Below the pieces are notes generated by a model. That model was not told the origin of the DNA. It saw only the letters and a program-made list of their open reading frames with translations, and made no database searches. A DNA stretch of 64,000 bases, taken from Owenia fusiformis. Its lineage: Eukaryota. Shown piece by piece: positions 43,501-58,500 of this stretch. The stretch is taken from the NCBI GenBank assembly GCA_903813345.2, contig CAIIXF020000001.1, forward strand, positions 9,796,001-9,860,000, read 5' to 3'. The position numbers were made by a program, and so were the translations under genes. The first letter of the stretch is position 1. Every line of letters starts with the position of its first letter.

Positions 43501-46500
43501 CTATGCTGAAGAAGGGATTTTCAAGATGGCCGCTATTTATCAAAATGGCTGCCATTTGTCGTTAAAAATGTAATCTTTGATAAGCCAAATACCAGTTGAG
43601 GGATTTACAGGCCTGTCAACTGTCCCGCAATTTGCGTATTTGTCACGCATTTGCTGAAGAATTTGAAGTCACGCCAGTTTTTTTTGCGTGACAGAAAATG
43701 TCACGCAAATACGCATTTTACCTGGTAATTGTCAAGCAGAAATATTTCTGTAGAAAATTTTTCAAAATATGTTTACGATACGGTAAAAATACGAACGTCG
43801 GAAAAAACCGAACGCAATTTGTTCGGATTTGTCACGCGAATCCCGTATAAATCACGCATGTTCATTGGAAATTTTCGTACCTAATTTTCAAGATGGTCGC
43901 TATTTATCAAAACATATTTTGTTTGGTAGGATTTGCTACTCTGTGCAGTTGCTGTTTTCTAGTTATAATAGGGTGATGGGGGGAGGGGTTTCGCTAGCCA
44001 AAAATTATTTTACTCAGGCATTGAGTACTTTTCAAGTGATTTTGGATCAGAAAATTGTTAAAGGACCGTGAGTTGTTTTTAGAATGAATCGAGGGAGTTT
44101 TCTAATGCATTTCTCTCAGGCCAGTAGCCAGGATTTGTCAAGGGGGGCTCAGTTTTCAAAAATTTCCAGGGAGGGTTCACATTTGACAATTTTTGCCCAA
44201 ATATGACTAAAATCACTTGAGAAGTGCTCAAAATTGTGAAAAACTGCATGATTTTGAAAGAATATTTGGCCAGGGGGGAACAATTTGTTCGCCAGAACCC
44301 TGCAAGAAGTTTGATAAGACATCAATAAAGGTAGAAATGTAGATATTTAGGAAACATGTATCTTGAAAAATGGTGCCCATTACATGCTATTTTATGATTT
44401 TCGCTATTACTTGAAAAGTAGTGGAGTGATTTTTCTCACTTTGGCTTGTAGGTGGCCATTCTGAAATTTATGTTTTTTACAATAACACAAAATATAATAG
44501 AGCGATTTTGTTCATATATATGATGAACTATAAGCATGTCACACTGTTTAGTACACCTTGACTAGTACATGGTCATTTTAAAAATGGCTGCCAAAAAGTA
44601 ATAGAACGATTTTGTTCATATTCACAGGTCGTAATAAAACAGCACTCTCTTGCAAAATCTGCGCAATCTGGTTAAAAATCGCACTCTCAAAGTAAAAATC
44701 ACATACAGGTAGGTCATAAAGCTGCATCTAAACCACAATTTACTGTAATTAACCTATCTGTTTATTAAGTCGAATCACATATTTACCTCCCCTATTCACT
44801 CATTGCTGACATCAGCATATCTCAAGTTTCTTCATAAACTGGCACACAGTCGAGATGTCAATTTGTGTGCAGTCTCAACAACAACCTCAGAAGCACTCGT
44901 TGCCATAAGTCGCGCCCTCAAAACCCGGGTTTGCCGTCATCCAAACCCGCCTTTGCAAAAAAACGAACGGTGCATTATTTGACTCGTTCGTGTTATTTTC
45001 GAGAGTTTTCAAACCAGAATTTTCATTGCTTTTATTAGAAGGGTTCCTCGTAATTAACTCTTAACTATGGATATGTTGACTTAAATGCAACTGACTTTTA
45101 AAGAGATGTTTTGCGCATAGGGTTATGAATGAAGTAACTAGTATGATGAACAAGCTCACTGGCGGATCTGGGGGGGGGGGGGGAGACAGCCCCCCCCTCC
45201 TTGGGTGGGCCCAGAAAAAAGTTAAGCCCCAAAAAGCCCAAAACGAGTGGGCCTTTTTGGGCATTACTGGGCCTTTTTTACTGTTTTGTCAGCCTTGAAA
45301 TTTGCACCCCCCCCCCTCCCCCTTTGTTGGTTTGTGGATCTGCCCCTGAAGGCAGTGGCCCTGAAGGCAAGGGGGGGGATTTTAGTCTGTAAAAAAATTT
45401 CTTAGCTTGCACCCTTAAAACCAAAAATTGGGTCCAATTTTTAAAACAAAGTTAAGGCCCATTTTTGATAAATTGGTCAAAAATGCCCTATAAAGGCCAA
45501 ATTATGCCCAAAATACCCATTTCTTAAGGCCTTCCCAAAAATTTTGGGTCCAAAAAGTAAAAAAAATCTGGGGGGCAGGTCCTAGTGTTTTTTAGTGCAA
45601 TTAGTAAATACATTGCCAGGTTTGTGAAATGGATTAATTTTAGCAAAATCAAGTATATCTGTTGGCACAATCAAGCACAATTGTCACAATCAATCTCTAT
45701 CTAAAATCACTATATCATGTCATGCCATATCATGATCAAATCCCTTCAAGAGATCTTTTTATTGGATCTAGTAATGCAAATGAGTTGTACATTTAAAATT
45801 GAATCATGTTTAATCATGTTAATGGGAATGAATTGAAGAGATGAAGAGAACATTAACAAGTAAATACAATATCAAGTCATTTGGGAGTTGAACCCAAACC
45901 AAAGAATATTACTTCCTTGGTGAAGCCCACACAACTTTGAACAATATTGTAAAAACATATTTATGTTCATTTTTGACAAACTTGCCCTCTGCTTTTACAA
46001 GGACTTGGGACCTTCTAGCTAGGCTAGGTAGCATTACAAGTTTGTCGGTCTTCACTCTTCACTAAACTTGGACACTCTATTGCTTAGTGGCTTTGCCCTC
46101 CATTTTGTTCTTCTCCACTCTTTTCCTATAGGATTTTGTACTCCTGGGTATCGCAACTTTAGGAACAAAGGCCAGATTAACCAGGACACAGCTAGTCCCT
46201 GGAGTAGGAGCAATCATAACATACCTTGGAGCAGGAGCTGGAGGAGCACTTGCACTGGAGGTGAATGAAATCAAGTTGGAAGTTGGTTGAGGTTGAAAGG
46301 CAAGCGTATCAGGAAGAATCCTCCTGTTCACTCGTGACATTCCTTCACCAGCTGTGTTCTTGGGAAGATCGAACATGTGGGGATCATCCACGTTGGCTGA
46401 GGGCAATGCTGCCAACTTCTTATCCTACGGGAAGGGATCTGCTGATGAAGCACTTGCACTTGACAGGGGTATCCTATCCTAGAGTGTTTCACCAGTTTCA

Positions 46501-49500
46501 ACTAATTTTTCAAATCAAGATGGAGTTTTGCCTAGTTGGTCTCCTGGTAAGGAGACAATTTTTGTGCTTGCTTTCCTCCACAAGGAGATCAACTGGGCAA
46601 AACTCCATCTTGATCTGAAAAAACGTTAACAAGACACACAGTGATAAATATCGCACTTTGAAGAGCAAACTGGCCACCATGCAATTTACCCAGCATGGCC
46701 AAAACCTAATCAGACCTTGGCACTAGTCTGCTCTTGCATCTGTAAACATTTCAAGTTGACAAGGTTAGCGGTTTTCCTGCAATTTTGATGACAAGAATTT
46801 ATTTGTAGTCTTGAACTTTGGGAAAATTTAGATAACATTGTTTGTGACCTAATTTGATGACCTTCGACCTTGAAAATTTCCTTAATTTAAATCCAAAATA
46901 TCAATTTAGAAAATCAACTTTTTTGACCTTTTCAAGGTCACTGAAGGTGAATGAAAGGTCAAATCTGTTACCTAGATTTGAACTTCTGAGAACTTGTAGA
47001 TGTTTTTTAAAAAAAATTGGTCAATTTGGAGCAAGTTGAAAAATTCAAAATGGCCGCCAAATTGAAAAATTCAAAATGGCCACCATGTAATTCAGCCAGC
47101 ATACCCAAAACCTAATCAGATCTTGGCAATAGCCTGCTCTTGCATCTGTAAAAATTTCAAGTTGAACGGATAAGTGGTTATCCTGGAATTTTGATGACAA
47201 GATTTGTTGAAAAATTCAAAATGGCCGCCACTTAGTTTACCCAGCATGCCCTTAACCTAATCAGATCTTGGTACTAGTCTGCTCTTGCATCTGTAAAAAT
47301 TTCAAGTTGAACAGGTAAGCAGTTATCCTGAAAATTTGATGACAAGATTTGGTTTATGTGCCGTCCGCCCGCCCGCCCGCCCAACAGCACAAGACGACGA
47401 CAATATAGCACTTTTTCAAAGTGCGATAAAAAGGGACACACTCTAGGGTATCCCCTGTTCTGTCCTATGTCATTCCTTTCATGTCTATTTTCTAAAAATC
47501 CACAAAGTGTACACTTTATTTCAGGAAAACTAAAGATATTTAAAATAATCTATTATTTGGGAGAATTTAAACATTTTTCACTCATTTTTGCATTTTGAAT
47601 CCATTTTAACTTTACCAATTTATAACATATCGTGAATCTTCTGGGAATATCGTATTTGGAATTGTAAGGAATAGATTGGTAGGTCAACTGTACATGTTGC
47701 TAGTAATTTTTTCATCCCTATAGATCTTATTCTGCCTTTAAGTACAGCAACACTCTCCTTCCTTTTCTTATCATCAATCCTGAAAAATAGTGTAATGTAA
47801 CATTAGACTGAATGAATATTTTAATATAGCGGTTGATAAAAAAAAACTAATTTGCTACAATATCACAATTTACTCTAGATTGTGGCTACAGAGTTGTGGT
47901 ATCATTTTTCAACATGTTCAATGAACAATAATTCATTATTTTTTCTTTAAAATTAATGTTTTTCAATGCGAAAGACTGTAATTGGTTTAAATGAATGATG
48001 TACTTCCATAAAGTCAATGTGGCATTGTTGATGTGAAACAGCTGAATCTGTGTTCTGCTCATAACATCTGCATCTTTCACTACCTTTCTTCTAATCTCAT
48101 TGTAGGATTTTACAATGAGGTTCAACCTCATCTCCTTCACACCAGCCACCTGGGTGGATCCAGGGTGAATTCCCAAGAGGTGTCTCATTACAGCCTCCAT
48201 ATATCTGTTGTGGTCTGGTGATCTGGCTACAACACCTTGGGTCAAGAATGCCCTAAAAAAGAACAAGTGATGAGTTTAAGGATGGCATTTAACTTTAACT
48301 AAGAATGCAAAAATCTACGATGTATAAAACATAAAATTTAATTTCTCTGCTATATATATTATAAGACCCATCAAAGCAGTATTCACATATGCTAATATTA
48401 AAAAAATTCTCTGAGACAGTCTGCATTGTCAGACACTACAAAATTATTTATCAAATAGATAAAGGCCCCATGTCAAGTTTGGATATTTAGTTTTAATCAT
48501 TTAAATATTACTTTTAATGACTTAAAAAACTATTTAGATAGGTTGCTCACTTTGTACTTTTCAAATATTTGAATTTTAAATGGGGCCTTTAATTTCTTCA
48601 GAATATTCCAAATAAGAAACTCACCTGGTATGATTGTGAAAAGACGCAAGCAATGTTGAGCCCCGGGGACATCTGTAGATGGGAAGTGTTACCCTACCTT
48701 TCACTAATGTCCCAACCTCCATGTACAGAGGAACAGGTTCTCAGATCTAGGTCCAGAAGTTGTGCTCGATAGTATTGCGTCCATCTCTACCTTTAAAGGT
48801 ATTGAATGCTTAAAATAATTATCCGACCTTGGGGGACTTTGGGATTTGGGAAACGATTGAAGGACCACATCTCCTGTTGCTTGCAGCAGCTCTGTATCTG
48901 TCACATCATCTGTGAAAAGATCCTCTTGCTGCCCTTTCTTCACTCCACTGTAAATAAAATAGGTCCATTTCAAAAGATTAATGTGAAAAATATGTATTAT
49001 GATGAGTATAACATACAATGCAGTGATCTCCCCAGCATTAAAGCAAGTGGGCGCAGCACCCACCTGAGATTTTGAAAATAGGCTTGCACCCACCTGAAAA
49101 TCCATATGCACCCACTTGAAAATGAGAAAAATCATGAAAAATTTGCATATATTGACCAATTTTGGTCTGAATTGTGAAAATGAACATTTTGTACCCACCT
49201 GAGAAAAAATTGTGGGGAGATCACTGCAATGCATTTGCCAGTTTGATCACTTGTGTGCAACAAAGGGTTAGGCTGACCTGAGTGGAAAACTCTGGAGAAG
49301 CCCCTAGGATCATTAGTGCATTCATTAATAAAATCATTATATATCGGACTCAAGATATTATTTGATTTTTAAGATATGTTGACAGGCAAGAGGCAATTTT
49401 CACCTGTTGTTTTCACAAAATCGCCAGTTGTTTTCAGGGATTTTTCAACTTTTCCATGTTAAATTTATGATTTCCATAAATTTTTCCTGTTTTCTTTTAT

Positions 49501-52500
49501 TTAGCCTGTTGTGAGAAATTCTAGTGAAACCCCTGTGTTTATGTAATACTATAGAGTTCACATTAGCTTCGTCAGGTTTCAAAATAATTTTATAACATGT
49601 TTGTACATACTAGGAAACATACTGTAACAATTATTTTTATACCTCAATCAAACATTTAAACACTAATATATTCACTGTAACAGTGAATATCTTTCAGTGT
49701 TTGAATGTTTGTATGTACATGCTAGAAATAAAGTTAGAGATCTTACATATTGTGGATCAAAAAAAATTTTGCATGTGTAAAAACTTGAAATAATACTGGG
49801 GCCATTCAGAATAATGCTAGAAATAAGACTAGAGCTCTTAACAGCTCCAAAATATTTTTAGCATGTACGCACATAAACATATAAGAATATTGCTCAGGCT
49901 ATTAAGAAAATTTTTACTGCGATTTCCCTGAAATGTTTTACATGTACGTACATGAGAAAATGGATCTATATACTTAATCAGCTTCTGGGGTCTTTTCTTG
50001 GAACCCTTTAACTTCTTCATCTCTAAGGCCTCTTTGCCCTCCAGAAATGCCATAAGGTACTTGACCAGGGTTGCCTTGTTCTGGCTCAGGGATGCAGGAG
50101 TTGCACACTCTCTGTCGACAGATTCTACAATGTATGCAGCATACCCAAAGAATTCTTTACAAGCCACTTGAAGGTCTGGCCTCTGAAGGCAGCAAACTGT
50201 AACATGAAGTGAGGGAGCCAATCCCACTCTTCCTTCGCACCAGGTCCAGTTTTCTTTGCTTGTGCCAGCACCTCAGCTAGGACCATGGCCCTCCCAACAG
50301 GCTTCCTCGCCTTATTGACTTGGGCAGCTTTTGCAGCTTTCTTGTTCAGACACGGGTGCACCCCAGTTGTCCGAAACCCAGTTGTCCGAAACCGAAACCC
50401 AGTTGTTGTCCGAAACCCAGTTCTCCGAAACCCATTTTTCCGAAACCCAGTTCTCCGAAACCCAGTTGTCCGAAACCCAGTTGTCCGAAAAATTTAGTCA
50501 TAATTTACCAGATAAAGGGGGACGCACCTCAAGCCAGTTTCATGTCATGTATTTGGCAAAATTAATGGCATGGACGCATTCTGATGTATAGATCTCTCTC
50601 TCACTTTGAATTGCATACATTACACGGCGTTACCAGAATGACAGGAACGGGGGATTTATTTTACATTGTGATTCTAAAAAAGGTCATCAAAACACAATAT
50701 ATATTACGGAACAGTTGATCTTATCTTATTCAATACATTTTATATAGGCAAAATAAAATGAAACATTTTGAAACCGATAAAATAAGTTAACGCATAAAAC
50801 TTTAAGAATAAACAGTACACATATTACGTTGTCAAAATGTTTCGTCGCATTTAATTTCTTAGTCTCTGTCTCTTATCAAATCGTAAAATGTAAAAGAACA
50901 AAACATTCTAAACGTAATCACTTGGGATTAACTGGAAACGAAGACAGGCTGTCCTCGTATCAAATTGGATGTTCTCCCATTCGCAAGAAGTTTCATTTTC
51001 GCCATGTACTCACTTCATCTTTTTGAATTTAATCTCTATTTCTCGAACAGAGTACCTAAATGAAGAATAATTTTTGGTTTCAAAAGATGTACACGACGTC
51101 GACTTTACTAAATAAATGCCCACTGGCTTGGGAAAACTATTTCCCTTTTATGAACGCCCATCACACATTGGAAAAATGTTGTTCCCTCTCAAAAAGCCCC
51201 ATGGGGCATAAAGAAAATTGGTTTAAAAATTGTAGACCCCTATGTATGTTAATATGTAAACGCCACTTTGCAATGAGAATAGCATAATTTAACTTTGTTT
51301 ATTTGAAGATCTGTATCACCTGTATTTTCATCTTTCGACAATTTTTATTAGGCTAAATACTAGCCCATGGAGGAATCGTTCAGTTGATATTTACTCTCAA
51401 ATACACCCTTTACCAATGAAAGAGTGCTCGTTCATAGAGCTAGATGGATTGGAGTGAAATATGTCAAGTGGAACATTTCAGAGTGCCAAGACCAACTCAT
51501 TAATGTTAAATGGACCTCTATAAGTGGGATACCTCCCATCCCACTTCATCCATTAACGATTAAGTCATTAACATTTACATTGTTACAGCCTGCCATTTGT
51601 TACAAACACCGGGTGATGACCCCTTAAATATAGGGTCTGAAGCTCAAATCTAGGGTCAAACGGATGGCAGAATATATAACTGTTAATCAATCTTTGCCAT
51701 TTCAATATATAGTTAAAATATTTAGTGAGGCAAGCAGATGTACGTATATGTTAATACAAATGTAAGTTTAAGGTTTTATGACTGTAAATTGAAGCATTAT
51801 AGATTTTTGGATAAACATGCAAGTCCTAGAGACATATATTGAATCTTGCTGGAACTTATAGCAGCTAAACATATTTGGAATCATTTTGAATTAATCTTTG
51901 TGAAATTCAAAATAGTCAAATGCTGTTTCAACATACTTGGATTCTTTTAAAGCAATCCAAAAATAAAAAGTGGCCAATTTCAAATAAAAACTTTTACATT
52001 ACATTCTACCATGCAAACAATTACTTCCAGGGGCGGATCTGGGAACCAACAAGGGGGGCAAATTCAGGTCAGAGAAAAAACTTCCCTAAAACCCAAAAGT
52101 TGGCCAAAATTTTGAAATTTTGAGGACCGTTTTCTTAAAAATTTGGCCTGAAATTGAAAAATAAGGCCTTAAAAGGCCCAGTATTGACCAAAAGGGTCTT
52201 TTTAGGCTTTTTTCTGGGTTCGCCAGTGACTCCTAAGATCATGATGGAAACTAATTGTTAATGACAAGTGTGATATTTTCAGACAAGTAGAATCAGGCCC
52301 GTAGCCAGGATTTGCTATTGTAATAATGTTTTAAATAATTGCAATTGTATCTATTTAAAAAACAATATTGCAATATTGTAAAATGACCTGATGTATACAA
52401 AGTTATAAAATAAGAAATATATACATGATTTAAAAAGAAAAAAGGAGTGCTGTCTCTGACTTTCTGCAATCACGCGGTCTTCGACCGTTAATAGGAATTT

Positions 52501-55500
52501 TTGACCTACCAGATGCTTGAAAATCAAGCGTTTTGGTCCCCACTCCCCAGCTGTTAGAAGGCCTTCTTACAGCTGGGGACCAAAATTACGCTGGAAGTAG
52601 GAACTCTGTTTAAGATAATAACGTACATTCAGAAAGAGATTTTTGTCATGCTTTGAATGGAACAAGTTTGAAGAAAAACGGTGCAGTATGAGACTCGTAA
52701 TTGATTTTCAAATATCCGGTAGGTCAAAAATTCAAATTAACGGTCGAAGTTAGGACCGAGTGGCAATAGGATAGTTTCTAAATAGCAGAAAAATCAATGA
52801 AATCTCGTGCTGCCATCTTTTATTCAGCTTTTAACTTGGGCTAGAGCTCCATTCATTTACATGTTAAAATCTTGGAAAATGGCTTAAAGTGTGCGCCCGA
52901 CCTGGCTACGTATATAACAGAGTTTATACTGGCGGATTAGACTAGTTCATTTTTTATATGTGTGTGAAAGCTTTCTCTTATTTGCGTTTTTTTCGTTTAG
53001 TACGGTTTTGTTATAATTGCCGAGGTCATATAACCGGGATAAAACTGCGCACACACAAAACATTTACGTCGACGTGAACAGTGTTATTAAAAACAACAAG
53101 CTTTAGAATACAAAGCCCAGTAGTGTGATAATAAGCTGTACACTACCACTGCTGCATGTACATATTAGGGCTCATAAAGAGTGGATAGGGAGGTTGTGTT
53201 TGTCACTTTTAATTAAATTTTACATTTCAAAATTGCCATTTTACATGTCATAATTTCTTGGTTTCATTCGTTTAGCCGATCAAAACATTGTAAAACAATA
53301 AATCGTCTATTACGTATGATCAATTTTGTTCGTTTTTAATTAGTTGTCAGAATGAAGTTACGTTCATCTGAATCCATGTTTCAAAACAAAAATCATATTT
53401 TCTTCACTTCAAAATACAAGTACTTCAGTGAGATGAATGCTCGGAATTGTCGTCTGCAATAACTTATTGTCGTATTCGTTCTTTTATCTACTCATAGAAG
53501 CATTTAGTCGTACATTTGATGCCAGGTCACCTTCTCGCGTACCTCTTGGGGAGCCCCACATTTGTGTCTGTCCTCATGGAAGTAAATTCCCCGGTGTAGC
53601 CGAGAGCCACAAACTTTCAACAGGTTCGAAATGGCCAATTTCTCTCATATATACTCATATTTTATTAATTATCACCTACAAAGTATTGCTAATAACTATA
53701 TGTAATTTCAATAAGGAAACTTATCTGGCTACATGTAAATTCAATATCAACACTAGATGTTCGCTCAACACGTCCTGGCTTACCTTGTGATGACAAACCC
53801 TGGGTTTTCGCTATTTATAGTTTATCAACACCTGGACGCATGCGCATTTTATAGTTTATCAGGCAGGCACTTTAATTTCATGATTTATCAAAGTGTGTTT
53901 GTTGAATCTGTATAAAACTTTATAATGATATACCACATGATGACCCTGTTTATGTACATGATGTGATTAAACATGCAAATGTTGATTGACATACAAATAA
54001 TCCACGGATTTAAAGAATTTTAGCATTGCATCTATGGACATTTGGCCCAAGTTTTTTTAAATTGTCATAGAAAATTATTCAAATTACATAACTGTGTAAA
54101 TCAAAGCTATTAAAGGAGAAAACATTTCACTGAATTCAAATATGCCATTTAAAAGAAGGTAACGTAAGTCATTAGAGGTCTAATATGCAAGTCTCTTAAA
54201 ATCTCACGAAAAACGAGATTTAGCGAGATTTCAAAAACTATATGGAAACTATACTATTATATCGAGTGACAACATACTAACGACGAACAGGACGTGGGGC
54301 AGAGGTTGAACTGTCTCAGAATGTATAAGGAACGAGGTAGAAATAAAGAATTCATATGAACGAGTCATGCAAGATACTAAAGAGATACAAATGCATTTTG
54401 ATACTCCGTTTTTGGGCAATTAAAACTCCCTGTCTGCATTGAGTATAGTTATTTATTGTCCGGTGTATAACTTTTGAAACATTATCCTAATTTTTCACAA
54501 AACTTTTTTTGATTCTGCAATAGTTAATGGTTGACATCTATGGCACACTAAAAACGAATTTTTTTATGCATGGTACGTACATGATACAGATCAAATCTTG
54601 GCTCTACTACAAACTATTACACACTTACTTCAACAGTTCAATATATCGCAAAAACAAAAACACAGTTTTGATTTTGAACAATATCACCAATGGGAGAAAT
54701 TCTTAAATCTAAATGTTTGGAAAGGAATACGTTTCTACTAAAACATACAAACCTCTTATATTATGACGAAAAAAGGATAGACATCTGATATGTATATATG
54801 CCACATAAGTTATACGAAATGAGCATATTTTATTGATTTATCGAAAATTTGGACGAAATCAATGGATGGTACTGAACAACCAAAATCTTCTTTTTAGATA
54901 TTTTTCAGGGTAGAAATATTATCAATTGATATTGGAAAACATAATTAACCATATTTTATTGAGAAAAGGGAATGAAAAAAATTATCAAATGAATATATAT
55001 AATTGTCACGGACGTCCATACGTTATTCTAATGAGATAGATATTCCTTTCGCCAGAATATTCTCTTAGACTGTGATAATTGTCTAAAATGTTGGCGGCAG
55101 TCTTGAATTTTCACCAAGAAGGAGTGCGATTCGTGCTGGACAATGCGGTTCAAAATTTGTAGAATGTCCATATAAGTCTATGTGCCGAGAAGCTAGTAAG
55201 AATATATATATGATCGTGAACTTTCGGACCCATTATTGACCGGGCTAACCGATGTCAACGTGATACCAATGTTATGCTGTCCTGATTGCGACAAGATTCG
55301 TTACTAATTAAGACATTTAATTTTTTAATTTTCGGAGAACTGGGTTTCGGACAACTGGGTTTCGGAGAACTGGGTTTCGGACAACTGGGTTTCGGACAAC
55401 TGGGTTTCGGACAACTGGGTTTCGGACAACTGGGTTGACCCCTTCAGACACAGCTTTCCACTTGATAGTCTCACGAAGAAGCTAGACATATTCTGAAACA

Positions 55501-58500
55501 TACCCCCAGGTTATTCTTATTATTTGAGGTCTCTTAGTTCTACATTTCAAAAGTCTGAGAAAAATAAACATCAAAACTACGACTTGAAACCCGCATATAT
55601 ATTTTTTGAAAAAATGAAAGAATGTTTCCTGCTACAATGAAGCTGTCTATACCCTCTCAGTTCGTCAGAAATCGCCGATGAGTTTTCAAAGTACCAGTAG
55701 ATCAAAAAAAATCTGTTTTTTGAAATATTTCAAAATTCGATCGATCATTTCGTAGAGAAATACTTCGATTTTAGAGTGGAGACTTACCTCGTCTCTGGGT
55801 AGATATTCTTCAAAATATATCATGGTTTTGCTATGAAAAGCAGTTATCACGGAGTAAATCCAACTCAAAGTACGCATTTTCTTCATTTCAAACTAGTTGA
55901 AAACAAAGATGGCTGAACTATGAAGTGACAAGTTAGAGTAGAAGGGGTCTTTTGACTTTTGGTATTTTAGGCCACTGATAAAAATAACTGATTTTCATGT
56001 GTTTAACATTTACTAAGTACAAAATACCAGGTATATCATTCTAATTAAGCACATTTTTCTATTTCTTAGCCTCATTAAACACTTATTTAGTTTGGAATGC
56101 CCTTAAACCCTGCTAAACCCTGGTCTGAGAAACAAAGATCTAAATAAGGCCAAAGAGCACCCGGGTTCACTGTTAAACCTCCTGCTCACTGTAGTATGAA
56201 TCATGAATGTACTTTCACACAGGGTTTAACAGAAAGAAACAGTGAACCCTGGTCTAACGAATCCGTGTTTCCAGGGTTCGCCTAGCATGCCTTCGACTCT
56301 TTCTCAACAACCTAGACAAATGTAAGTATCCTAAAACACACAGATGATGTGAAACACATTCCTCTAGCTGAATATACTAACAAGACCAAGCTAGGTCGAT
56401 GAACTTCATCCTACTGAGCAGGTATCCAGAATCCGTACCTCCTTCTTCCCCCCTGCTATAACCAATTTGGAAGCGCCCGATTAAACTGAATCACGTGATC
56501 TTATTATGCGCAATGACTTATACATGATTTCTGTCGCAGTGTTGAGACAGCCAATCAGATTACGAGTTCTTAATCGGGGAAAGGCTAACTGCTTATCGCA
56601 GGGGGTAAAAAGAAAGAATATATTCTGGATTTTGAAGCCCTGTGATCGGAGGATGATGAACTTACAAGATGGATCCTTTGTTTTGAAAAAAAATTCAAAT
56701 TAACGACTTTTTACCAGAATCTGCAGATTTTGCATGAGAGTGCTGTTTGATTACAACCTCTGTGATATTATATCTGATATGTGACTAATTATAGGCATGG
56801 TACACTGTTTTTTTTACAATTGTGCACGAAATCTGCCATTTCGAAAAAAGTTGTTTTATGAAGTTTGCTGTTACTAAAAGGAATGTTATAAAAACCCTTT
56901 GACCTTTGACCTGCACTTTTGACCTTCAGCTTCGACCTACAGGGTGCCCAAAAAGCGGGCCAAAAAGAAAGTTATAAAAACCCTTCGACCTGCACCTTTG
57001 ACTTTTCTTATGAAAATTGTCAAAGTCCAAAAATATTTCTTTGAAAAACGACTAAGTCCAACTTCACATAGATTTAATGAAATTGAACGGAGCTCTGTCC
57101 TCGTCGAAAGCTAGCTGTCATCTCTTGAGTTTACATCGGCGAAATACTTTATAGGCCTGGTGACGTCATCACTTTTCGGACAAGATTTCAAAGTTAAATA
57201 ACAAGTTATTGACGCCATATCCCGTTTTAATATTGATCAACAAGACTATAATTGGAACTCAATAAATAGAACAGTAATAGGTCGCTACTTACTCTAATTT
57301 TACTTCGATTCAATCGAATCAAAACCAGGAAGTAAGTTCTAAAAAGGGAAACTTCCATTTAAACTAGACCCGATTGACTACCCGATCAACATCAACAGAA
57401 TCTTAATTTGATAACATGAAAACGCTATTTCACCCCTGTAACTAAACCTAGAGTACTGCAAACGTTGCTACAATTTAAGATCTTAATGATCTCACCTGTG
57501 AACCACAAATCAAGTGACTCTTGCGTGGTCTGAGATCGGCAAAAATAGCTTCTATAATATTTTCTTTTTGGACACCCTGTAAGTCGAAGGTGAAGGTCGA
57601 AGGTACAGGTCGAAGGTCGAAGGGTTTTTATAACATTCCTTACTAAAATCGTAGAGAGGCAATTTTGTGAAGAGATTTAATGGGATTTGCCATGCCTTGG
57701 CATTGCTGTTGTCTAGTTGGATCTGTTTTTCTCTTTAGACACAACATATGGTACATATTACTGCCTAATATCTATACAAATCACCATAATGAATTGCTCT
57801 TTTGTGTATTTAAAATGACACAATATTTTTCAAAAAAATTAATTTTGTGTTTATATGTATTGATTGACCTTAAAATAATTGTAAAATGTCAGTTCAGTCC
57901 AAAGTCAACTTGATCTGGCTGGCCATAACAGTGGATTTTTCTAAGCTCAAGTTGCTATTTATTTGCATAATTTTGTTTAACAATATTTCAAATGCCAAGA
58001 AGGCATAAGGAACACAGTATTGGCCTCCCTCGTATCTTTGTGCAAATTGAACATTTATAGATTTGGTTTCAGACATGACATATTGTTTATAAAAGTGAAA
58101 GTGACCTTAATGAGATGATAATGATATGTCATTTGATACAAAATGTTTAAATGATTGAGTCGATAAAGCTTGCTGTTAAAGAGGGATATTGCAATAGGAG
58201 AGCACAATTAAGACTCCCTAGACTTTTTTGCATGTTGAGTTTTATGACATATTCACCTATCTACTTAGCAACAAAGTAGTTCCAAAACTGCCGCTTTATA
58301 TCCTTATTTTGCGATTGTACTGACTGGTCGAATTATTTTCGTTGAAATTAATTAATCTGAAGTCTGGGAAAATCCTCTCTTATCTGGTTGTTAAATTTGT
58401 TAATGATGAACTTGATTGGCTGCCTGGTTCAAGGTGTGTTGGCACTCGCGTCAAGTGATGGGGATTCCCCTCTGTGGCCGAGGAATCTATTGTCTTCAAT

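Follow-up and report, generated by a model that had tools for sequence, protein, structure and literature searches.

The DNA analysed here is a stretch of 64,000 nucleotides from Owenia fusiformis (GCA_903813345.2, contig CAIIXF020000001.1, positions 9,796,001 to 9,860,000, forward strand), referred to as the window. Positions 44618-56769 of the window are three DNA transposons, one inside another. The outermost is a miniature inverted-repeat transposable element (MITE). It encloses an element with remnants of a transposase gene on the minus strand (44888-56305), probably an internally deleted, non-autonomous transposon of the Dada superfamily that retains its native ends. The first exon of the Dada gene is in turn split by a 5,089-bp element (50354-55442), which an earlier note on this DNA, made from the sequence alone, had missed. 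From the nesting, the MITE entered a host repeat, the Dada element entered the MITE, and the innermost element, with a 9-bp target site duplication (TSD), entered the first exon of Dada. Judged from its sequences, the window family appears to be a dispersed Dada family that ignores small-RNA genes, makes an unambiguous 8-bp TSD and is known from dead copies only. The features, from left to right, are as follows.

44618..44622, +: TSD of the outer MITE, left copy ATATT (sequence; the family TSD is 5 bp)
44623..44887, +: outer host MITE, left part, with terminal inverted repeat (TIR) 44623-44681 and family end CACAGGTAG
44880..44887, +: 8-bp TSD of the Dada element, AACAACCT, first copy; present once in uninterrupted MITE paralogues
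44888..56305, -: non-autonomous Dada element (probable), 11,418 bp including nested insertions; sister copies 4.3-12.6 kb
44888..45148, -: 3' terminal 260 bp, common to the 0.7-1.4-kb short derivatives; ends GAGTGCTTCTG
45981..46040, -: twister-P1-like RNA motif in a passenger repeat
46080..46424, -: C-terminal coding remnant, LPKNTAG ... RKRVEKNK
48006..48254, -: coding exon, PDHNRYMEA ... LFHINNATLTLW; corresponds to residues 997-1081 of P0153, 41%
48630..48740, -: end of the catalytic domain, YRCPRGSTLLASFH; deletion junction just upstream
49985..50353, -: N-terminal coding remnant, QFAAFRGQTFKWLVKN, frameshift, GYAAYIV
50345..50353 (left) and 55443-55451 (right), +: 9-bp TSD of the innermost insertion, TTCAGACAC
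50354..55442, strand not assigned: nested 5,089-bp element
55443..55491, -: start of the coding frame, MSSFFVRLSSG; joins 50353 directly in sister copies; exact start codon inferred
55936..56305, -: 5' terminal 370 bp, common to three subfamilies; starts GAGAAAGAGTCG
56306..56313, +: right-hand copy of the 8-bp Dada TSD
56306..56764, +: outer host MITE, right part, with TIR 56704-56764
56765..56769, +: TSD of the outer MITE, right copy ATATT

Limits, Copies and Target Site Duplications of the Element

The earlier note had taken 60-bp TIRs beginning with CACAG for the ends of the coding element. The inverted repeat is real (44623-44681 and 56704-56762, 59 nt, 85% identity), and so are all four minus-strand peptides reported inside it, but the repeat belongs to the outer MITE. 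One window exon has seven further copies in the same genome at 97-98%, plus two distant ones. The seven sister copies match the window between 44888 and about 56305 and nowhere beyond, and all begin and finish with the same two ends, GAGAAAGAGTCG... and ...GAGTGCTTCTG, which lie 265 and 459 bases inward of the CACAG termini. None carries CACAG repeats at its ends; in seven of seven cases, therefore, the TIR does not flank the homologous frames elsewhere, an outcome that the note itself had named as counting against its proposal.

Searches of the genome with these ends, in each of which the best 40 of 151-185 candidates were scored, led to 50 copies with paired ends. Of these, 24 are long, at 4.3-31 kb, and 25 are short, at 0.7-1.4 kb; the remaining one, of 1.8 kb, belongs to a third subfamily. 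Seven loci of one search set and one of another showed a single end and were excluded, apart from a 31-kb copy among them, whose other end was found separately. An 8-bp TSD is exact in 42 of the 50 copies, near-exact in six and absent in two. By set, exact duplications flank the window copy and its sisters (8/8), 28/32 and 5/8 copies of two further sets and the 31-kb copy (1/1), while the third-subfamily copy has one mismatch; no exact 6- or 7-bp match was found in the eight pairs of the window and its sisters. The element has no true TIR, as 8 of the first 12 and 16 of the first 30 terminal bases pair.

Among the 23 long copies compared, the median difference is 2.0%, which points to a young burst. 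Both termini of the gene survive in their order, one about 0.8 kb and the other about 1.2 kb inside the element ends. What short copies have in common with the long family is limited to the two ends: 362 bp at the start, at about 77%, and 170-260 bp at the finish, at 83-97%. Among 15 joints listed from four public runs, with 867 more beyond them, none skips 44888-56305 as an empty allele would.

Some copies are clustered, with three in 21 kb (G000:C1:27.94-27.96 Mb) and two head to head 130 bp apart (G000:C7:1.137-1.151 Mb). Since each copy in these tight clusters has its own TSD, local hopping of the family is suggested.

Coding Remnants and Identity of the Transposase

The window exons match the homologues P0153, P0025 and P0166. 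The central region is deleted in the window copy, near 48745 as the earlier note had it, because no homologue match falls between residues 143 and 699 of P0153; all 23 long copies are without residues about 145-695. The codon at 48645-48647 does read GCG, placing Ala at the position of the catalytic Glu, and Ala or Gly stands there in the 22 long copies that keep the site. The window family has lost the CCCC and CCHC zinc fingers, both catalytic Asp residues and the DxxH motif, and its Glu has become Ala or Gly.

The proposal that the peptides come from a dead DDE transposase of the DUF6729 family is right. A Pfam search with six window pieces gave no relevant match, since the domain falls in the deleted part, and a word-index protein search with the 97-aa exon of the window gave none. 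The nearest fuller copy in the same genome, L045, shows 45-88% identity to the family across its coding pieces and contains YVDRDCC, LDIWH and GSTSLESFH, with the second Asp, DxxH and Glu present. It matches PF20499 (DUF6729) with 160 bits and 6.5e-47, above the curated cut-off, as do 4/4 full-length homologues. The description of the family as poorly classified, with a superfamily still to be settled, does not hold: DUF6729 is the transposase of Dada, a superfamily described in 2013.

The L045 protein search returned 1,514 clusters at E 0.001, and those that are named are annotated as "uncharacterized" in crinoid, amphioxus, sea urchin, hemichordate and fishes. The published Dada-U6_DR has its triad at D567, D635 and E811; its CCCC finger occupies residues 389/394/429/432, and its CCHC finger residues 1359/1362/1372/1381 (Kojima and Jurka 2013, PMC3706591). 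Homologue P0198 reproduces these spacings (D-D 68, D-E 176, CCCC +5/+35/+3, CCHC +3/+10/+9), and the other five homologues have D-D 68 and D-E 185-190. The triad with DxxH after the second Asp and the CCHC finger are present in six of six homologues, the CCCC finger being matched by pattern in two. In the Dada dataset of Kojima 2022 (PMC8869645), four codon guesses for the motif gave 25 matches; eight passages listed encode RCARGSTSLESFHLH when translated by eye, and one passage between the headers Dada-U6_DaAe and Dada-U6_DaCh reads, by eye, as P0198 of Danio aesculapii. Moreover, 3/20 metagenome homologue loci adjoin U6 positions 1-68 with the junction shown in Fig. S2 of PMC3706591. These Dada-U6 insertions with the canonical U6 junction lie at L127:1-68, L173:4485-4554 and L185:4789-4857.

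The confidently predicted structure of homologue P0001 (pLDDT 83) comes closest to the fold of the ISCth4 transposase (E 2.1e-4, TM 0.50 on target); the two matches of this model at E 0.001 or better were both ISCth4, and the ESM Atlas gave MULE/ISL3/IS66 as leads only. Four full-length homologues gave no KDZ match in Pfam. The literature searched held neither a link between DUF6729 and Dada nor an untargeted or 8-bp Dada family; Repbase, Dfam, reviews or supplements may already include such families.

Domesticated dDada is characterised by DxxQ and the lack of the first Asp (PMC8869645). The cyprinid si:ch73-112l6.1 proteins have DxxQ in 3/4 and miss the first Asp in 4/4, and group with P0198 in a quick tree. 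From these sequences we take si:ch73-112l6.1 to be dDada, with some reserve, as a search of the supplement did not turn up the gene identifier given in the paper.

Upstream of a distant Dada fragment in the L047/L103 region (G000:C4:27.21 Mb), further frames were seen by eye, which we take to be helicase-like, OTU-like and transposase-like.

Target Sites

Two Dada marks do not fit the window family: the 6-7-bp TSD and the fixed site in multicopy small-RNA genes. All published Dada elements with clearly definable termini lie in small-RNA genes and have TSDs of 6-7 bp (PMC3706591). An 8-bp TSD could not be excluded for Dada-U1, which "appears" to have the 8-mer CTGCGAAT, and Table 1 of the same paper includes Dada-1 families without a named target (PMC3706591). 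The 2022 survey took only families flanked by RNA genes and says that "many of which" are target-specific (Kojima 2022, PMC8869645).

In the window family, 36 sites have 36 different TSDs. No tRNA gene was found in 41 rebuilt empty sites, which gave one chance-like match to a published target 6-mer. An Rfam search, which covered 19 loci and the window out of the 50 paired sites, found no pieces of small nuclear RNA (snRNA), tRNA or 5S genes in the 19 loci or the window stretch. The same genome has at least 48 U6 genes. A tandem U6 array with a 746-bp period was seen at G000:C800, the 44 units listed being full-length.

The insertions share a loose preference instead of a fixed target. Compared with background, the 41 sites have C at -2 in 76% vs 16%, G at +1 in 66% vs 18% and G/C at +2 in 93% vs 37%, around an A/T-rich core. 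The loose pattern CC-N8-GG fits 36/41 sites vs 9.7% of 3000 background draws. The pattern was derived from 36 of the 41 scored sites, with the five later sites all fitting it. About 10/36 flanks resemble one GC-rich repeat, at differing positions, and the motif of this repeat occurs in 3/41 sites vs 16/3000 (p 0.002); insertion is therefore not fully random. The same data, together with a near-identical 50-bp site at the short copies L079 and L084, could mean that the family does have a specific target, in the form of a multicopy host repeat rather than an RNA gene. We hold this to be very unlikely: positions within the repeat differ, most sites have unrelated flanks, no two of the 36 TSDs are alike, and the enrichment fits a preference for CC/GG.

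Ownership of the Ends and a Proposed Mechanism

The reading of 44888-56305 as a Dada element with native ends draws support from the gene termini, kept in order near the ends, from the lack of RNA-gene halves round the remnant, from the lack of a true TIR and from the different end of the local KDZ family. An intact Dada transposase would have spread the window element in trans. It would bind the two unlike ends via subterminal sequence, make an 8-bp staggered cut and read a target that is palindromic but loosely defined (C, then C or A, eight bases that are mainly A/T, G, then G or C), leaving small-RNA genes unread. We infer, rather than show, that Dada made the 8-bp footprints, because 23/23 long copies are without the catalytic core and no autonomous partner was found.

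Several results pull the other way. Protein and family searches for an autonomous copy with these ends gave degenerate loci only, and end profiles found no match round six loci with fuller Dada remains (best E 0.06). Neither end looks like the published Dada ends inspected, and no end-like DNA was found in 80 metagenome loci. In the quick tree, the L045 row sits on a long unplaced branch, only one row from this genome having passed the length filter. Finally, 25 paired short copies and two third-subfamily copies have the same ends with no Dada gene DNA where compared, so that a single subfamily ties the ends to the gene. The central deletion is also present in the parts of the 31-kb copy compared (all but about 1.4 kb). 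A 10-kb third-subfamily copy has a reverse-transcriptase-like frame, and no transposase frame was recognised in it by eye. A tRNA scan of 52 of the 80 metagenome loci gave one call, in L189.

The short copies without detected Dada DNA are also what would be expected if the ends and the 8-bp TSD belonged to another superfamily (hAT, P, KDZ/Zisupton or Merlin) that had captured a dead Dada gene as cargo. We regard this as unlikely, though it has several points in its favour: the element picks up passengers freely, one end starts with CAG, and KDZ transposases are present and young in the same genome, Zisupton being a group with an 8-bp TSD. The local KDZ end, the one end from these groups that was compared and seen in 4/7 loci, is nevertheless unlike either end of the window element, and the end profiles have no match in those seven loci. 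A hAT or P element would need short, near-perfect TIRs, and a proper TIR is lacking here. TSDs of 8 bp, like those of the family, have been described for hAT and P (PMC3706591). Capture as cargo also sits poorly with two of the observations above: no RNA-gene halves flank the remnant, and both gene termini lie at normal distances from the ends. For KDZ taken by itself, ownership of the ends is not supported, the local family having another end.

At loci L216-L229 there is a young family of Zisupton/KDZ type, longer than 13 kb and starting CAGTCAATACTCC; five of seven loci are one family, 97-99% identical.

The Outer MITE

The right end of the MITE is placed at 56764, between ATATT/ATATT flanks, because the right arm has a 2-bp duplication. 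The TIR has 36 matches in the genome, with the consensus end CACAGGTAG on both sides; the genome-wide search of the TIR that the earlier note called for finds a family, but it is the MITE's. With the inner element left out, the MITE measures 716 bp and aligns across the junction with 18/28 MITE loci, most of which show a single AACAACCT-like 8-mer. Because these paralogues run uninterrupted over the insertion point, the gene-bearing element sits within the MITE. The outer flanks rejoin into a unit resembling the host repeat at 44486-44549, as had been noticed before.

In ten paired MITE copies (0.3-1.3 kb) the 5-bp TSD is exact in four, has one mismatch in one and at least two mismatches in five; three further pairs gave one exact 5-mer, one with one mismatch and one without a match. 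A 7-bp TSD has at least three mismatches in 10/10 paired copies. From the earlier proposal of a TSD of 5 bp exact or 7 bp with a mismatch, the 5-bp ATATT therefore stands, for the MITE family, and the 7-bp version falls. That the CACAG termini with such a TSD are the ends of the DUF6729 element, so that the window copy would define them for the transposase family, is exceedingly improbable: CACAG repeats do enclose the exons in the window taken alone, but the sister copies end elsewhere, 18 MITE loci continue over the insertion point without the element, and paired MITE copies measure 0.3-1.3 kb.

A CAC terminus and a 5-bp TSD are marks of Transib/RAG-type elements. The outer MITE shares both and differs in its A/T-rich targets, so that the assignment is a lead only.

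The Nested 5.1-kb Element and Other Passengers

The element at 50354-55442, which splits the first Dada exon, is missing from the sister copies. Its ends are GGG, its subterminal 15-bp tandem repeats face each other in inverted orientation and its TSD is 9 bp, marks by which we take it to be Mutator/Foldback-like. No long open reading frame was found in it on either strand. Its left part has at least 40 copies at 96-100%, with 547 candidates in the genome search; it is a young, high-copy element. Other long Dada copies may contain insertions related to it.

The motif at 45981-46040 on the minus strand is a candidate twister-P1 RNA (RF03160), with 59.5 bits vs a gathering threshold of 67.2, E 1.4e-11, the full model covered and no mispaired positions. 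The passenger repeat that bears it stands in place of the DNA that encodes the C-terminal zinc finger. The Dada family contains about 27 copies of the motif; of about 12 others outside it, three lie in 1.1-1.5-kb tandem units (L108). In the closing stem, variants at L106, L108 and L109 have a G-C pair in place of T-A. The motif was considered as a native feature of Dada and rejected, because L045 and six other loci have no match and about 12 occurrences lie outside the family.

A 206-bp MITE at 49021-49226, with CAGTGATCTC inverted ends and a 5-bp duplication, is missing from sister copies. Passengers common to sister copies (46506-46622, 46656-47351, 45157-45360) are a 43-bp hairpin element, three 145-bp repeats and a GC-rich GGCGGATC repeat.

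Comparison with Known Systems

Dada serves in the literature as the standard example of a DNA transposon with strict target specificity, and a 2026 review still has each Dada family inserting in tRNA, rRNA or snRNA genes. A dispersed 8-bp family would widen the definition of the group. DUF6729, a label carried by hundreds of animal proteins called "uncharacterized", is also tied to a named superfamily by these results. The length of the Dada TSD was left uncertain because constant targets blur the element ends (PMC3706591); the 42 exact, mostly unrelated footprints of the window family give 8 bp without ambiguity, together with a baseline for target preference. With such a family at hand, the origin of Dada specificity becomes testable by comparing targeted and untargeted transposases.

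Published Dada elements such as Dada-U6_DR and Dada-U6N1_DR, the latter a deletion derivative of the former (PMC3706591; PMC8869645), are like the window family in transposase family and, where homologues are compared, in D-D-DxxH-E spacing and zinc fingers. Introns, size range, the lack of a true TIR and non-autonomous deletion derivatives are also alike. The two differ in that published Dada families with defined ends use U6, U1, 5S or tRNA genes with a 6-7-bp TSD, whereas the window family is dispersed with an 8-bp TSD different at every site, produces a crop of 0.7-1.4-kb derivatives and has ends unlike the published ends inspected.

Zisupton/KDZ elements are large and multi-exon. They share the 8-bp TSD, but the four full-length Dada homologues gave no KDZ match and the local KDZ end differs.

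The IS256-family ISCth4 (PDB 6XG8; PMC7780238), the best fold match of the full-length homologue model, is alike in its DDE triad, DxxH and helical insertion, and has A/T-rich 8-bp TSDs as the window family does. It differs from the Dada homologue in sequence (9% identity), near-identical TIRs, a size of about 400 residues and the lack of such zinc fingers. Eukaryotic Mutator/MuDR elements stand beside IS256 among the systems closest to Dada. Copy-out/paste-in has been shown for ISCth4, the best circle-junction spacer being 6 bp (PMC7780238). The U6 site of Dada reads CC-CTGCGAAA-GG. A speculative and rather unlikely proposal would join these observations and the 8-mer of Dada-U1: Dada would be at root a general IS256-like transposon with an 8-bp staggered cut at a loose CC-N8-GG, RNA-gene targeting would be a tightened form of this preference, and the published 6-7-bp TSDs and 6-base "replacements" would be donor bases in a circle junction. 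If this were true, Dada would be a eukaryotic copy-out/paste-in element.

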